Both the position numbers and the translations under genes were made by a program. DNA of 64,000 bases, taken from an uncultured Candidatus Saccharibacteria bacterium (lineage in GTDB: Bacteria > Patescibacteriota > Minisyncoccia > Phycocordibacterales > UBA9973). The notes beneath the pieces are model-generated. The model was not told where the DNA came from, searched no databases, and saw only the letters and a list, made by a program, of their open reading frames with translations. The stretch lies in contig CAYVDC010000005.1 in the NCBI GenBank assembly GCA_964450735.1, positions 22,628 to 86,627 on the forward strand. The letters are read 5' to 3'. Positions 17,238-25,143 of this stretch are shown here, piece after piece. Positions within the stretch are counted from its first letter, which is position 1. Each line of letters starts with the position of its first letter.

Positions 17238-17365
17238 AATAATTGGTTTAATGGGTCAAAAAATATGTTGTTTTTAAAGAGATTTTAGCATATTACCATA
17301 TATTTGACATACAGTCAATGGTGTCCTTGAAAAATACCAGCAAGTAGTGTATCGTGTTGGTATAC

Positions 17366-17914
17366 ATGGCAAAAATCACTATTTTCGGATTAGCAGGTAC
17401 TGGCAAAAGTTCTACAGCAAAAGAACTTGCCGGTATTTTAAACTATGAATACCGATCAACCGGAAACATGTTTCGCGAGATGGCCGAAGAAGCAGGCATG
17501 GGGCTCAATGAGTTTGAAATAGTTTGCCAGGCAAATCCAAACCATGACCGAGAACTCGATGCGCGAACAGCTGATTATGGCAAAACGCATGACAATTTTA
17601 TTTTTGAATCTCGATTAGCATGGCATTTTATCCCCGACTCTTTCAAGATCATGCTTGTATGCGGACAAGAAGAGCGCATTAAGCGCGTTGCCGAACGAGA
17701 AAGTAAAACTGTTGAACTCGTCACAGAACAGACCTTGCATAGAGAATCTTCTATATACCGCCGTTTCAAAGAATTTTATGATATCGATGATATTAACGAT
17801 CCAAGCCATTATGACCTCATCGTTGATACTCAAAAAAACAACCTCATGGAAGTTGTTGCATTGATACTCCAGGCTCTGAAAGACCGCGAAATAGTTTCTA
17901 TTCCACAAAAATAG
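17366..17914 (+). CDS. cmk: Cytidylate kinase-like P-loop kinase (short/archaeal-type CMP kinase)
   Basis: IFGLAGTGKSS Walker A; about 180 aa; ORF opens at a GTG at 17354, ATG at 17366 preferred. Confidence 0.6.
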   Translation: MAKITIFGLAGTGKSSTAKELAGILNYEYRSTGNMFREMAEEAGMGLNEFEIVCQANPNHDRELDARTADYGKTHDNFIFESRLAWHFIPDSFKIMLVCGQEERIKRVAERESKTVELVTEQTLHRESSIYRRFKEFYDIDDINDPSHYDLIVDTQKNNLMEVVALILQALKDREIVSIPQK

Positions 17915-18923
17915 GCTCTGGCTCTATCTCAATATCAAACCTCTCCCGCACTTGTTGCTGTATATCAGCCACAAGTGCTTTGAGTTCGTCCGCAGTCGCA
18001 CCGCCTTTGTTGACGATGACCAATGCGTTTCCTGGATAAAGCTGTAAGTTGCCAAATTCTTTTCCTTTGAGTCCAAGCGTGTCGATAAGCCAACCCGCAC
18101 CCACCTTTACCGTCTGTTCATCAACTGGAAAAACAACAGCTTTCTCAAATGAAGCCTTGAGCTCGTTTCCCTTTTCGACAGATACAAATGGATTCTTGAA
18201 GAATGAACCGACGGATGCGATTTCTCGGGGATCAGGGAGTTTGTTTTTGCGAATTTCGATGATTGCTTCGCGAATTTCTTGAAGGGTCGGCTTGGCAATT
18301 CCTTTTTTCTCAAAGTATGAAGCCACGCCAGGATATGCTGGTGCCGTTGCCTCTTTTTTCTCAAGCTGAAAATCGACAGAAACGATAACATAACGATCTT
18401 TGCCCTCTCCTTTAAAAATACTGTTGCGGTACCCAAACTGACAGTCTTCGTTGAGAAAGGTGACAAATCCACCAAGGAGCGTATCGTAGGCATCAAGAGA
18501 GACGATCGTATCGGCAACTTCTGCGCCATACGCTCCGACGTTTTGAACTGGAGTTCCTCCAACAGATCCTGGTATAGCTGAGAGCGCCTCGAGGCCTGTA
18601 TATCCCATGTCTACTGTTCGAGAAACAACACTGTCCCATTCTTCACCTGCACCAAAACGGAAGATCGCCGTATTACCCTCTTCGTGTGTCTTTTCAAAGC
18701 CCGGGATTGCAATCTGAAGTACCAGCGCCTCAAGATTTGGCTCTGCGAAAATTGTATTTGACCCACCGCCAAGCACGACAACGGGGACGGCGTGAGATTC
18801 TGCGAACAAGTACGCATCAGTGATATCCATTTTGTCGGTAATTCGGGCAAAATACCGGGCCTCGGCCTGCATTCGGAATGTGGACAGTCCACTGAGATCT
18901 TTGTTTTCTTCGATCTGTAACAT
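17898..18923 (-). CDS. murB: UDP-N-acetylenolpyruvoylglucosamine reductase MurB
   Basis: VVVLGGGSNTIF FAD-binding motif; C-terminal MurB domain. Confidence 0.9.
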   Translation of the reverse strand: MLQIEENKDLSGLSTFRMQAEARYFARITDKMDITDAYLFAESHAVPVVVLGGGSNTIFAEPNLEALVLQIAIPGFEKTHEEGNTAIFRFGAGEEWDSVVSRTVDMGYTGLEALSAIPGSVGGTPVQNVGAYGAEVADTIVSLDAYDTLLGGFVTFLNEDCQFGYRNSIFKGEGKDRYVIVSVDFQLEKKEATAPAYPGVASYFEKKGIAKPTLQEIREAIIEIRKNKLPDPREIASVGSFFKNPFVSVEKGNELKASFEKAVVFPVDEQTVKVGAGWLIDTLGLKGKEFGNLQLYPGNALVIVNKGGATADELKALVADIQQQVRERFDIEIEPEPIFVE

Positions 18924-18951
18924 ATTGCAATTATATCATATATGATATAAA

Positions 18952-20502
18952 ATGCTACTTATGAACAAAGCGTCACAAGACACAACTACTACCAGCGAAC
19001 AAGAAAAGGTCGGATTTCTGATCAAAAAGCTCCGCGAACAGCGCGGCATGACCCAGGCCGAGTTTGCCAAAGCGCTTGCTACTTCCCAATCCGCAGTCGC
19101 CCGCATGGAATCTGGCGGCCAAAATCTCACTGTGGATCAACTCTCAAAAATCGGCGAGGTTCTTGACCGAAAGATCATGTCTCTTTCAGATGACTCAGTA
19201 GACTTCCAGATCGAAGGCGGACGCAAGCTTTCAGGAACCATTGAAACCAACTTTTCAAAAAACGGCGCCGTTGCACTCATTCCTGCTGCCCTGCTTAACA
19301 AAGGCACAACCATTTTGAATGGTATTCCAAAGATCGAAGAAGTATTTCGGCAAATTGAACTCTTCAAATCTATAGGAGTAGATGTTCAGTGGACCAAAGA
19401 AAATACTTTGAAGATCACTCCTCCAAAGCAATACGACCTCAAGCATATGGACGCTGGCGTAGCCAAGAAAATCCGCGTATCGCTCTATCTCTTTGGCGCA
19501 CTCGGCAAACAGTTGAAGTCTTTTTCTCTTCCCCATTCCGGCGGATGCAAAATGGGCAAACGAACAATCAAGGCGCATGAAGCTGGCCTTCATGAATTGG
19601 GATTGAATATCAAGACAACTGACACTGCATATGAAGTCAGCCACACGAAACTTTCAGGAGGAGAAGTTACTCTCTATGAATCAAGCGACATGGCAACGAT
19701 CAATATTCTTCTCCTTGCTGCGCAAATTCCACAGGAAACAGTAATTCACTTCGCTCAGGCAAACTACATGGTGCAAGATGTATGCTTCTTCCTCCAGGAA
19801 CTTGGCGTATCTATAGATGGCGTAGGTTCGAGCACCCTTCGCGTTCGAGGAATAGAAAGCATTACTAAGCCGATCGAATATTGCAACAGCGAAGACCCAA
19901 TTGAATCTATGATGTGGCTTTCTGCTGCAATCGTCACCAAGTCAAAACTTATCATCACTCGCTGCCCTATCGATTTCTTGCGACGAGAGCTTCTTGTTCT
20001 TGAAGACATGGGATTGAAGTTCACTACATCAAAAAAATACTTCTCATTTAATAACAAAACCGTACTTGTTGATATTACGGTTTTGCCTTCAAAGCTCCAC
20101 GCTCCAGAAGACAAGATCACTGCTCAGCCATATCCAGGCATTAACACCGACAACCTGCCATTCTTCGTTCCTATTGTTACTCAGGCAGAAGGAACAACGC
20201 TCATTCACGACTGGATGTGGGAAAATCGCGCGATCTATTTCACTGAGCTCAATCGCCTCGGTGCGCAGGTTACTTTGGCAGATCCGCATCGTGCATTCAT
20301 TACCGGCCCAAGCAAATTAAAAGGCGCACAAGTTGTTTGTCCTCCGGCACTTCGTCCTGCAACAATTATCCTTATCGCCATGCTTGCGGCCGAAGGCACT
20401 TCAACGCTTCGCAACGTGTATTCGATCAAACGCGGCTATGCTGAGATCGCTGAGCGTTTGAACTCAATCGGCGCGAATATTAAAGTCTTGAAAGGAATGT
20501 AA
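18952..20502 (+). CDS. murA: UDP-GlcNAc 1-carboxyvinyltransferase MurA with an in-frame N-terminal XRE-family HTH domain
   Basis: Residues about 20-75 are a Cro/C1-type HTH (LREQRGMTQAEFAKALATSQSAVARMESG); MurA begins at MSLSDDSVDFQIEGGRKLSG; active-site Cys in PHSGGCKMGKR. Confidence 0.85.
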   Translation: MLLMNKASQDTTTTSEQEKVGFLIKKLREQRGMTQAEFAKALATSQSAVARMESGGQNLTVDQLSKIGEVLDRKIMSLSDDSVDFQIEGGRKLSGTIETNFSKNGAVALIPAALLNKGTTILNGIPKIEEVFRQIELFKSIGVDVQWTKENTLKITPPKQYDLKHMDAGVAKKIRVSLYLFGALGKQLKSFSLPHSGGCKMGKRTIKAHEAGLHELGLNIKTTDTAYEVSHTKLSGGEVTLYESSDMATINILLLAAQIPQETVIHFAQANYMVQDVCFFLQELGVSIDGVGSSTLRVRGIESITKPIEYCNSEDPIESMMWLSAAIVTKSKLIITRCPIDFLRRELLVLEDMGLKFTTSKKYFSFNNKTVLVDITVLPSKLHAPEDKITAQPYPGINTDNLPFFVPIVTQAEGTTLIHDWMWENRAIYFTELNRLGAQVTLADPHRAFITGPSKLKGAQVVCPPALRPATIILIAMLAAEGTSTLRNVYSIKRGYAEIAERLNSIGANIKVLKGM

Positions 20503-22279: not shown

Positions 22280-22365
22280 TTTTATGTATTTTTTATTATT
22301 TAAACATGAAAAAAAATTAAAGTCAATTTTGTGGCAGTATAGCGTATATGATATAGTCTTTCTAT

Positions 22366-25143
22366 ATGGAAAACCCTCCAAACATTCCGGAAAAGTTCCT
22401 CAAGGCCTATGATGCTGCGGCTACTGAAAAAGATGTGTATCAGCGCTGGGAAGCCAGCGGCTTTTTTAATCCAGACAAATGCATAGAAGCTGGCGTCACT
22501 GCCCCCGATGCAAAGGCATTCACTATCATGATGCCTCCTCCGAACGTCACCGGCGTTCTTCACATGGGACATGCCATGATGCTCACCCTCGAAGACATTA
22601 TGATCCGATTCAAGCGAATGCAGGGCTACAAGACATTATGGCTTCCAGGAACTGACCACGCCGCAATTGCAACGCAATCAAAAGTAGAAAAAGAAATTCA
22701 AAAAAAAGAAGGCAAGTCTCGCCACGATCTCGGGCGAGAAGAATTGTTGAGCCGAGTGAATGCGTTTGCCCAAGACAGCCACGACACTATTGTCTCGCAG
22801 GTAAAAGTGATGGGCGCATCATGTGACTGGTCACGAGAGGCCTTTACCCTTGATGCTCCTCGCAATCGCGCGGTAAACACCATGTTCAAGAAAATGTACG
22901 ACGATGGATTGATCTATCGCGGACATCGCATCGTCAACTGGGATCCAAAAGGCCAAACAACTATCGCTGACGATGAAATCGTATACGAAGAGCGAAAGTC
23001 AAAGATGTACACATTTAAGTACTCAAAAGACTTCCCTATCTCGATCTCTACTACTCGACCTGAAACAAAGGTTGGTGACTCTGCGGTTGCAGTTCATCCC
23101 GAAGACCCTCGATACCAGGAATTTATCGGAAAAGAGTACGATGCAGTATTCTGCGGAGTTCCAATCCATATCAAAATCATTGCAGATGAATCGGTAGAAA
23201 AAGACTTTGGCACTGGCGCACTCGGCGTTACTCCTGCTCATTCGATGACAGACTGGGAAATCGCTGATCGTCACAACCTTCCACGCAATCCTGTCATCAA
23301 TGAATACGCAAAAATGACCGTTGGTGGAGAGAATATTAAAGGGAAAAAGACGACCGAAGCACGCGAAGTCATTGTTCAATGGTTGCGCGATGAGGGTTTG
23401 CTTGAAAAAGAAGAAGACGTCACTCAAAACATTGGAACTGCTGAACGAACCGGCGGCATTATTGAGCCGTTGCCGAAACTTCAGTGGTTTGTAGACGTAA
23501 ACAAGGAGTTCGAACTTCCTCACTCAAATCTCACCGGAATTCCAAGTGGATCAAAAACTACATTCAAAGAAATCATGCGCAAGACCGTCGAAAGCGGACA
23601 GATCAAAATTCTGCCTGAGTATTTCGACAAAACATATTTCCACTGGATCGACAATTTGCGCGACTGGTGCATCTCACGACAGATTTGGTACGGACACCGC
23701 GTGCCAGTGTGGTATGACGCAGAAAAGAAAGAACATCTTCCAAAAAAGATAACTCTTTTGCTTGCTCGGCACGGGGAAAGCGAAGCTAATGCCAACGACA
23801 TATTTAGCGGCGGCAATTTTGACAGCCCGCTCACTCAAAAAGGAATCGATCAAGCGCATGAACTCGGCAAGAACTGCAAGACAATGAAAATCGACGGCGT
23901 TCTTTCATCGGCAATGAGCCGCAGCAAAGACACTGCGAAGTTTGCTTGCGAGGAACTCGGTATCAATCCTACCTCGGTCATTGAAATTCCTGAACTGCAT
24001 GAAGTTAAAAGCGACATGGACGGAAAGCCGAAGACAAAAGACCACTTCCGATTGAGCCAATTGATTCGTGAAGGAAAGGGAGAAACGATTGAACAAATAA
24101 AAGACCGTGCGGATGCGGCGCTTGCGAAAATTTCTGCCCTCGACGAAGGCACGTATCTCGTTGTTGCTCATAATGCATTCAATGCCTGCCTCCAAGCCCG
24201 CATCATGGGGATGGACGGAGAAAAAATTATTCAGCACTGGGAACATGTTGGTATCCGAGATAATGGCTCGGTAATGGAAGTTACTCTCATTGTTAATCCT
24301 ACTGATCCAGAACTTAAACAAGATGAAGACACGCTCGACACTTGGTTTTCATCTGCTCTTTGGACATTCTCAACCCTCGGATGGCCTGACAAAACAAAAG
24401 ACTTGGAAATCTATCACCCAACCGATGTTCTTGAAACTGGATACGAGATCCTTTTCTTCTGGGTTGCCCGCATGATCCTCATGACTGGCTACGCACTCGG
24501 AGACATTCCATTCCACACCGTATACCTGCACGGTACTGTTCGAGACGGCCAAGGACGCAAAATGTCCAAATCACTCGGCAATGGAATCGATCCGCTCGAC
24601 ATCGCTGCAAAATACGGCGCTGACGCGGGACGTATGGCTCTTGTTGTTGGAACTGCAGCTGGAACTGACTCAAAAATTTCTGAAGACAAAATCAAAGGTT
24701 ACAAGAACTTCTGCAATAAGCTCTGGAACATTACACGATTCATTCTTTCCAACACAGAAAATGTCACTCTCGATGAATCCTTCGGCGCATGGAGCGAACA
24801 AGACACAAAACTGATCGCGGAATTCAATACCATCAAAGCAGAAGTCACCCGAGAATATTCTGAGTACAAATTCCATATCGTTTCTGAAAAATTGTATCAC
24901 TATGCATGGCACAGCCTCGCTGATGTGATACTTGAAGACAGTAAAAAAATATTTACCGAAGGCACCGATGCTGAGAAAGCTTCGCGAGCACAGTTCTTGC
25001 TTGCAACACTCTACGATCTCTTGAAGCTTCTCCATCCGCTCATGCCGTTTGTTACCGAAGAAATTTGGAGTTTGCTTCCTACACAGGGTCGACTCTTAAT
25101 GGTAACAAAGTGGCCTGCATTGGCCGAGCAGCATGAATCCTAA
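22366..25143 (+). CDS. valS: Valyl-tRNA synthetase carrying an inserted histidine-phosphatase domain
   Basis: HIGH motif PNVTGVLHMGHA, KMSKS motif, WYGHRVPVWYD and QDEDTLDTWFSSALW blocks; insert at residues about 458-648 has an RHGESEAN signature; no C-terminal coiled coil. Confidence 0.95.
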   Translation: MENPPNIPEKFLKAYDAAATEKDVYQRWEASGFFNPDKCIEAGVTAPDAKAFTIMMPPPNVTGVLHMGHAMMLTLEDIMIRFKRMQGYKTLWLPGTDHAAIATQSKVEKEIQKKEGKSRHDLGREELLSRVNAFAQDSHDTIVSQVKVMGASCDWSREAFTLDAPRNRAVNTMFKKMYDDGLIYRGHRIVNWDPKGQTTIADDEIVYEERKSKMYTFKYSKDFPISISTTRPETKVGDSAVAVHPEDPRYQEFIGKEYDAVFCGVPIHIKIIADESVEKDFGTGALGVTPAHSMTDWEIADRHNLPRNPVINEYAKMTVGGENIKGKKTTEAREVIVQWLRDEGLLEKEEDVTQNIGTAERTGGIIEPLPKLQWFVDVNKEFELPHSNLTGIPSGSKTTFKEIMRKTVESGQIKILPEYFDKTYFHWIDNLRDWCISRQIWYGHRVPVWYDAEKKEHLPKKITLLLARHGESEANANDIFSGGNFDSPLTQKGIDQAHELGKNCKTMKIDGVLSSAMSRSKDTAKFACEELGINPTSVIEIPELHEVKSDMDGKPKTKDHFRLSQLIREGKGETIEQIKDRADAALAKISALDEGTYLVVAHNAFNACLQARIMGMDGEKIIQHWEHVGIRDNGSVMEVTLIVNPTDPELKQDEDTLDTWFSSALWTFSTLGWPDKTKDLEIYHPTDVLETGYEILFFWVARMILMTGYALGDIPFHTVYLHGTVRDGQGRKMSKSLGNGIDPLDIAAKYGADAGRMALVVGTAAGTDSKISEDKIKGYKNFCNKLWNITRFILSNTENVTLDESFGAWSEQDTKLIAEFNTIKAEVTREYSEYKFHIVSEKLYHYAWHSLADVILEDSKKIFTEGTDAEKASRAQFLLATLYDLLKLLHPLMPFVTEEIWSLLPTQGRLLMVTKWPALAEQHES

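Follow-up and report, generated by a model that had tools for sequence, protein, structure and literature searches.

Can an enzyme of cell-wall synthesis carry a DNA-binding domain of its own and, if so, which site would that domain read? The question is raised by a gene in a 64,000-nucleotide stretch of contig CAYVDC010000005.1 from an uncultured Candidatus Saccharibacteria bacterium (hereafter the window, meaning the whole stretch at its full length). There, the open reading frame (ORF) for MurA, the UDP-N-acetylglucosamine (UDP-GlcNAc) 1-carboxyvinyltransferase, opens with a helix-turn-helix (HTH) domain of the XRE family. MurA catalyses the committed and essential step of peptidoglycan synthesis and is the target of fosfomycin. 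An earlier note on this DNA had left two options for the gene, a true XRE–MurA fusion or translation from an internal methionine. The homologue searches, locus comparisons and promoter analysis reported here support the fusion and point to a bifunctional trigger enzyme that would repress both its own gene, murA, and the divergent gene murB through an 18-bp palindrome between the two. The probability of this reading, in which we infer both DNA binding and repression, is put at roughly three in four.

Domain organisation of the HTH-murA gene

The gene, all parts of which are on the plus strand, is laid out as follows.

18952 to 20502, plus strand: HTH-murA coding sequence, opening at ATG 18952 (516 residues); probable true start at ATG 18961 (513 residues)
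19003 to 19176, plus strand: XRE/Cro-C1 HTH domain, residues 18–75 (Pfam HTH_3)
19081 to 19110, plus strand: recognition helix T44-SQSAVARME-53
19177 to 19200, plus strand: poorly conserved linker of eight residues, 76–83, including the non-conserved Met76
19201 to 20499, plus strand: MurA (UDP-GlcNAc 1-carboxyvinyltransferase) domain, residues 84–516
19546 to 19548, plus strand: codon of the catalytic Cys199

The frame was confirmed to run from 18952 to 20502 without a stop codon between the HTH and MurA, as the earlier note had read it. The N-terminal region, described there as a textbook Cro/C1-type HTH, was matched by Pfam HTH_3 at residues 24–74 with an E-value of 2e-12 (47.4 bits against a cutoff of 23), and HTH_31 likewise scored above its cutoff (33.1 against 27 bits). 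The AlphaFold2 model, with a mean predicted local distance difference test (pLDDT) score of 84, placed the HTH helices at residues 16–30, 35–42, 46–53 and 61–71 with values of about 75–89, followed by a confidently predicted MurA body. The linker region (residues 72–83) was of low confidence, with pLDDT values below 50 at residues 77–81, so the model is uninformative on dimerisation and on docking of the HTH onto MurA. The nearest solved structures of the HTH were restriction-modification (R-M) controller proteins, HipB and MBF1.

The enzyme part was matched by Pfam EPSP_synthase at residues 88–503 (E-value 2.5e-42) and by the NCBIfam MurA subfamily PRK09369 at residues 85–513 (324.5 bits against a cutoff of 297), while the stricter equivalog TIGR01072 was not reached (320.8 against 392.7). 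On alignment to a solved MurA (PDB 6q03), C199 coincided with the cysteine of the GGCAIG motif. Residues K103, C199, R204, D400, R468 and R494 were invariant in an alignment of 14 sequences (A1); their equivalents in Escherichia coli MurA we take to be K22, C115, R120, D305, R371 and R397. Among the 33 solved MurA-family sequences that were matched (32 MurA and NikO), none aligns before query residue 84, and the fusion is present in no solved structure. The gene is flanked by the divergent murB and, directly downstream, by tsaD, in a window with a G+C content of 43%.

Conservation of the fusion and translation start

The fusion was assessed by a homologue search in a collection of 5.8 billion proteins, the best 120 matches of which ranged from 100% to 61% identity. 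All 120 combined PF01381 and PF00275 in one protein of 489–579 residues. When genomes were scanned at one per species, at least 473 Patescibacteria genomes proved to encode a relative, and in each of the 80 best loci one continuous in-frame tblastn match covered the query from about residue 15 to residue 516. These relatives are metagenome-assembled Patescibacteria (Paceibacteria/Parcubacteria, with Nomura-, Zambryski-, Jorgensen-, Yanofsky- and Uhrbacteria labels). No close orthologue showed a stop codon or a separate upstream HTH gene, the kind of finding that the earlier note had named as evidence against the fusion.

The recognition helix TSQSAVARME was nearly invariant across the homologues, and in A1 the whole segment from T44 to E53 was invariant together with G55, Q57 and N58. 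Pairwise identity amounted to 0.66 for the HTH, 0.81 for its helices 2–3, 0.35 for the linker and 0.67 for MurA; judged by these values, purifying selection on the HTH is as strong as that on the essential enzyme. The internal methionine was located at 19177–19179 (Met76), exactly where the earlier note had placed it, and most sequences of A1 have V, I or F in its place. Met76 is thus not conserved, which excludes an internal start, and the second of the two options was discarded.

It is accordingly most improbable that the fusion is an artefact of assembly, frameshift or gene calling, or that translation starts at Met76 and the HTH is never made. All that speaks for such an explanation is that the architecture is unusual a priori and that a Shine-Dalgarno sequence is missing; opposed to it are the same in-frame fusion in hundreds of independent assemblies, the strong purifying selection on the HTH, the non-conserved Met76 and the genome-wide lack of Shine-Dalgarno motifs. 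With the fusion in frame in 120 homologues and 80 loci, assembly error and frameshift were ruled out. As far as sequence comparison reaches, the window gene is confirmed as a genuine, anciently conserved in-frame XRE–MurA fusion with all checked catalytic residues kept.

Translation is likely to start at the second ATG (18961), yielding 513 residues, because the first (18952) lies inside the predicted -10 box described below and P0001, a database protein of 100% identity, is annotated with 513 residues (MNKAS...). Public databases name these proteins simply UDP-N-acetylglucosamine 1-carboxyvinyltransferase, and a full-text literature search turned up no paper on the fusion, on its operator or on the pseudoenzyme relatives.

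A conserved palindrome at the murA and murB promoters

The upstream search for an XRE-type operator palindrome that the earlier note had suggested returned a strikingly conserved one, which overlaps the predicted promoters of both murA and murB.

18932 to 18949, no strand assigned: perfect 18-bp palindrome TATATCATATATGATATA, proposed HTH operator common to the murA and murB promoters (motif search and locus comparison)
18925 to 18953, plus strand: predicted sigma-70 murA promoter, with -35 box TTGCAA at 18925–18930, a 17-nt spacer and -10 box TAAAAT at 18948–18953
17898 to 18923, minus strand: divergent murB (UDP-N-acetylenolpyruvoylglucosamine reductase; Pfam MurB_C and FAD_binding_4)

The palindrome sits in the 28-nt murB–murA intergenic region and consists of half-sites TATATCA and TGATATA around a variable 4-bp centre. 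Its conservation was tested on the upstream regions of 77 loci aligned on the start codon. The consensus TATATCAYATRTGATATA was found exactly in 51 loci, with one mismatch in 19 and with two mismatches in three (73/77 altogether), usually ending 8–12 nt before the ATG. Two of the remaining four loci are cut by contig ends, one of which (L023) begins inside the right half; at another (L071), the palindrome stands at the start of a three-gene operon whose last gene is HTH-murA. Locus L064 is the only one without it, so that the palindrome is present in 74 of the 75 evaluable loci, whatever the upstream gene. Information content is about 2 bits inside the motif and falls below 0.6 bits at both edges, the flanks being unconserved. 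Of the 53 loci (7.5 kb each) that hold the 16-bp core, 52 have a single copy, upstream of murA, and the 64-kb window contains one exact copy plus one with two mismatches, against 0.06 sites with up to three mismatches expected by chance.

One and the same asymmetric change in the right half, TGAGATA for TGATATA, was observed at L016, L022, L030, L032, L041, L057, L059 and L074; it appears to be a variant of the operator or the -10 box that is specific to a lineage. A role of the palindrome as RNA hairpin or attenuator was considered and found unlikely, as transcription is predicted to start downstream of it and the hairpin that it could form as DNA is weak (-6.3 kcal/mol).

The promoter was called by an independent consensus scan. 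In the predicted murA promoter, the palindrome takes up the spacer and the -10 box, and it mirrors the -10 box of murB, whose transcript likewise looks leaderless; the murB ATG lies 8 nt from the left edge of the palindrome, the minus strand reading TGATATAAT, 6 nt and ATG. Among the 73 palindrome loci, murB is divergent in 37, with its ATG 8–10 nt from the palindrome in 27 of them, while nine loci have another divergent gene and 27 have none. Of the 27 loci lacking a divergent gene, 25 nevertheless have an exact left half. The symmetry of the palindrome is thus independent of a second promoter, and on this ground it was ruled out that the palindrome is nothing more than a -10 box for murA set back to back with one for murB.

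The predicted murA -10 box ends 7 nt before ATG 18961, and the murA mRNA is therefore probably leaderless; a -10 box ending 6–7 nt before the ATG recurs at many HTH-murA loci. Across the window, a Shine-Dalgarno-like motif was found at four of 61 crudely called genes, and many genes have a TAnnnT box, often TGnTAnAAT, 6–9 nt before the ATG, which suggests that leaderless mRNAs are the norm in the source organism. The lack of a Shine-Dalgarno sequence at either candidate start, correctly noted earlier, is explained by this window-wide pattern. A literature search on leaderless translation in Patescibacteria found no paper.

Next to this region, a cytidylate-kinase-like gene (17354–17914, plus strand), whose ORF opens with GTG, converges with murB, the 3' ends of the two genes overlapping by 17 nt. 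The second copy of the palindrome in the window precedes valS.

22338 to 22355, plus strand: imperfect copy TATAGCGTATATGATATA, whose left half has two mismatches; the valS ATG (22366) follows after 10 nt

This copy is exact in L112 (96% identity) and in L001 (85% identity), though the flanks differ, and may be a weak second operator or merely an extended -10 promoter. The valS gene itself (22366–25143, plus strand) was observed to hold a complete His_Phos_1 (phosphoglycerate-mutase-like) domain at residues 464–640 (E-value 8.7e-28), inserted in the class I catalytic domain, which is unusual for a valyl-tRNA synthetase.

The position of the palindrome also admits an explanation in terms of promoter function, namely that it is a compact bidirectional or strong extended -10 element and that the HTH does another job, such as protein contact or localisation of MurA. 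Its right half agrees with the extended -10 consensus at other genes and, at the 37 of 73 loci with a divergent murB, its left half supplies the -10 box of that gene as well; moreover, an XRE-type HTH fold is used for protein binding in RodZ. Such an element would leave unaccounted for the exact left half where no divergent gene exists, as well as the pairing of an invariant ten-residue recognition helix with an invariant DNA site, which is the signature of a protein–DNA pair. A Pfam scan of the window protein gave no match to HTH_25, the RodZ-type domain, and MurA follows the HTH directly with no membrane segment between them; a RodZ-like protein-binding HTH was rejected on these grounds. A generic promoter motif was likewise discarded as a full explanation, given the single exact copy in the window, the other genes of which have the right-half extended -10 only.

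Co-occurrence of the palindrome with related HTH domains

A scan of metagenome contigs for the exact motif returned at least 120 loci; the counts that follow are among the matches listed. At least 24 of the 120 adjoin HTH-MurA genes, including variants at 49–57% identity with TSQSAINRIE or TSQSAVNRIE helices. Another 14 adjoin a Pfam Gp49 (RelE/HigB-like) toxin gene, accompanied in 12 cases by a recognisable XRE antitoxin, and six adjoin stand-alone XRE genes. The antitoxin HTHs are 37–49% identical to that of MurA and have the recognition helix T[KT]QSN[IV]AR[MI]E.G.QNF, and a 74-residue stand-alone XRE protein at L123 carries TSQSAVARME itself. The motif is thus enriched near HTH-MurA and XRE genes, without being exclusive to them.

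It is established that type II antitoxins control their own expression by way of palindromes in the promoter of their operon. The same palindrome together with a matching helix in an unrelated type of operon provides strong, if indirect, evidence that this HTH subtype reads the site. At L106, L107, L133, L167, L169, L170, L189, L192 and further loci, the ATG of the Gp49 toxin was seen to lie within the 18-bp palindrome, the protein starting with MIY..., and several Gp49/XRE operons have TTGACA just upstream of it.

A search of 1.84 billion cluster representatives extended the comparison to distant relatives, among which fused proteins were found down to 32% identity and unfused MurA at 52–55% over the enzyme part. 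The loci compare as follows.

L205 and L206 (P0122 and P0124, unfused): no HTH; no palindrome
L210 (P0125): extension decayed, no Pfam HTH; no palindrome within three mismatches in 5.8 kb
L201 (P0127): HTH intact; palindrome with one mismatch, directly after TTGACA
L204 (P0134): HTH intact; palindrome variant TATAACATATATGCTATA
L207 (P0137): HTH intact; palindrome with one mismatch, at the operon start
L209 (P0195): HTH intact; palindrome ATATCAGATATGATAT, 4 nt before the ATG
L211 (P0130): HTH intact; palindrome with one mismatch, overlapping the ATG

For P0141 (L208), whose HTH is intact and whose gene overlaps the preceding one, no palindrome was found in the short upstream stretch available. 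Across the loci compared, the palindrome tracks the HTH, being present with an intact domain and absent where the domain is absent or decayed. This disappearance exactly where the HTH is missing or decayed, and the company that the same palindrome keeps with related antitoxin HTHs in unrelated operons, both run counter to a pure promoter element, which we regard as improbable.

Degenerate relatives and a candidate regulon

Six of the distant relatives (P0127, P0130, P0134, P0137, P0141 and P0195) have lost the GGC.G.R catalytic loop and the equivalents of R91, R371 and R397 (alignment A2) and have kept a helix of the form TSQSA[VI][AN]R[IM]E. Three of their genes lie in mur-gene clusters, where they are divergent from operons that contain murA.

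L201, 6001 to 7503: P0127 gene, divergent from a canonical unfused murA–murB operon; ddl or Mur-ligase genes follow
L204, 5211 to 6740: P0134 gene, divergent from a canonical unfused murA–murB operon; ddl or Mur-ligase genes follow
L211, 3498 to 5003: P0130 gene, divergent from an operon of an unknown gene, a Mur ligase gene and murA

By analogy, these proteins are presumed to be dedicated regulators derived from MurA, a natural counterpart of the regulator BzdR discussed below. Their existence raises the question of whether the window protein could itself be a transcription factor with a MurA-like domain as ligand sensor, the real MurA being encoded elsewhere. That three such relatives are encoded next to a canonical murA, and that the window protein scores below the TIGR01072 cutoff (320.8 versus 392.7), would agree with this possibility. 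The window protein and its close homologues have nevertheless kept K103, C199, R204, D400, R468 and R494, the PRK09369 cutoff for MurA was passed, and a canonical unfused murA stands beside a fused gene only at loci where the fused copy is degenerate. No second murA was found in the 64-kb window, nor among those ORFs read in the homologue flanks, which were not specifically searched for it. A sensor without enzymatic function is hence held to be a poor candidate for the window protein, and an active MurA with an added HTH is retained.

The palindrome was also found before a NUDIX hydrolase and sugar-nucleotidyltransferase gene pair in three loci.

L055, 5641 to 6964, minus strand: NUDIX hydrolase and sugar-nucleotidyltransferase pair behind a second exact palindrome, in a separate operon 2.4 kb from murA
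L071, 1677 to 2980: the same pair, behind the palindrome and before HTH-murA
L207, 3685 to 4996: the same pair, behind the palindrome and before an HTH-MurA-like gene

On the strength of these arrangements, the pair is a possible further member of the regulon. No NUDIX/NTP_transferase pair was found in the 64-kb window.

Proposed mechanism

In the mechanism that we propose for the trigger enzyme, two HTH domains would bind the two half-sites and, once bound, would keep RNA polymerase off the promoters of murA and murB. Transcription of both genes would thereby be set by how much MurA protein is present, through negative autoregulation of murA and co-repression of murB, and in some genomes the same site would also control the NUDIX and sugar-nucleotidyltransferase operon. 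UDP-N-acetylmuramic acid (UDP-MurNAc) is a feedback inhibitor of MurA. More speculatively, the occupancy of the MurA domain by UDP-GlcNAc, phosphoenolpyruvate or UDP-MurNAc, or its open or closed conformation, might modulate DNA binding, and binding tuned in this way could couple precursor supply to transcription. The direct link between cell-wall precursor synthesis and transcriptional control envisaged in the earlier note is, at the computational level, well supported.

The sign of the regulation might also be the reverse, with HTH-MurA binding the palindrome and activating, or switching between the overlapping murA and murB promoters. The closest solved structures of the HTH are XRE-family controller proteins, some of which (the C-proteins) both activate and repress from adjacent operators, and the divergent promoters overlap completely, so that a bound protein could bias the choice between them. 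The site is a single one, located between the -35 and -10 boxes and overlapping the latter, which is the classical position for a repressor, and no second upstream site was seen in the motif scans of the window and the loci. Activation or switching is therefore considered an unlikely outcome, albeit one with some chance, and repression is preferred.

Several points weigh against autoregulation by a MurA repressor. In the metagenome scan, 76 of the 120 listed matches had no recognisable XRE neighbour, and many of them lay in AT-rich, low-complexity DNA. Other leaderless genes of the window use an extended -10 consensus that coincides with the right half-site (TGATATA plus AT), so promoter function accounts for some of the conservation of this half. 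A palindromic operator has to be bound by a dimer, yet solved MurA enzymes are generally monomers. DNA binding is deduced wholly from comparison, repression rather than activation is read from the position of the site only, and control by ligands is conjecture throughout. Finally, a second murA may be present elsewhere in the genome, beyond the sequence examined.

If the proposal holds, a radiation of uncultured bacteria with reduced genomes would have made MurA its own repressor, acting on a defined 18-bp operator. This would provide a directly testable pair of regulator and operator for organisms whose transcriptional regulation is almost wholly uncharacterised. It would further provide a candidate small regulon (murA, murB and the NUDIX and nucleotidyltransferase genes) for the homeostasis of UDP-sugars and cell-wall precursors in Patescibacteria.

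Comparison with known systems

Canonical MurA enzymes, such as those of E. coli, Enterobacter cloacae and Clostridioides difficile (PDB 1UAE and 6Q03, among others), share with the window protein the fold, the catalytic residues and the cysteine targeted by fosfomycin, but the solved ones that were matched lack an N-terminal HTH. In Firmicutes, the level of MurA is controlled by ClpCP proteolysis via ReoM and ReoY. To our knowledge, control of the MurA level has been described for a few model organisms only, and there it is post-translational.

The biotin ligase-repressor BirA, the proline dehydrogenase-repressor PutA and NadR are trigger enzymes, in which the status of enzyme or substrate is coupled to transcription. 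The window protein resembles them in that the promoter carrying its proposed operator serves genes of its own pathway; computationally, it combines an enzyme and a DNA-binding domain in one chain, with a palindrome overlapping the murA and murB promoters. It differs in fold, having an XRE HTH rather than the winged HTH of BirA or the ribbon-helix-helix of PutA, and in pathway, as it would act at the committed step of peptidoglycan synthesis. We know of no enzyme-regulator of that step, and the literature search found none.

By helix and fold comparison, the HTH is closest to XRE antitoxins and R-M controller proteins. The antitoxins of Gp49/RelE-like (HigB-like) toxins have a near-identical recognition helix and the same 18-bp palindrome on their own promoter. 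They carry an N-terminal extension of about 40 residues, whereas in HTH-MurA the HTH is N-terminal and its C-terminal partner is an enzyme instead of a toxin-binding segment. Nor does a toxin gene adjoin HTH-murA, the neighbours of which are murB and tsaD; Gp49 genes were found only at separate metagenomic loci. A tentative scenario, which we consider possible though doubtful, is that these Patescibacteria still display, next to one another, the successive forms of an enzyme on its way to becoming a transcription factor. The window protein, as an active MurA with a captured antitoxin-type HTH, would represent the middle stage of this path from plain MurA, through a fusion that autoregulates murA and murB, to a duplicate with a dead sensor domain that regulates a canonical murA–murB operon. 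In the same scenario, the operator shared with the Gp49/XRE modules could cross-regulate cell-wall precursor synthesis and toxin–antitoxin expression.

The closest parallel in architecture is the BzdR subfamily, in which an XRE HTH is joined through a linker to a shikimate-kinase-like sensor domain (PMC3602430). In the window protein, a short linker likewise connects the XRE-type HTH to an enzyme-derived domain at the C-terminus, and its N-terminal part is weakly matched by NCBIfam PRK08154. It departs from BzdR in having a MurA/EPSP synthase fold instead of that of shikimate kinase, and in its intact MurA catalytic residues; the loss of such residues, typical of BzdR, is confined to the six degenerate relatives listed above (P0127, P0130, P0134, P0137, P0141 and P0195). 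These (P0127, P0130, P0134 and the others) would be the exact analogue of BzdR, with a dead enzyme domain as presumed sensor. The active-enzyme "missing link" was built artificially in the BzdR study (PMC3602430), and the window protein, as read here, corresponds to a natural version of it.

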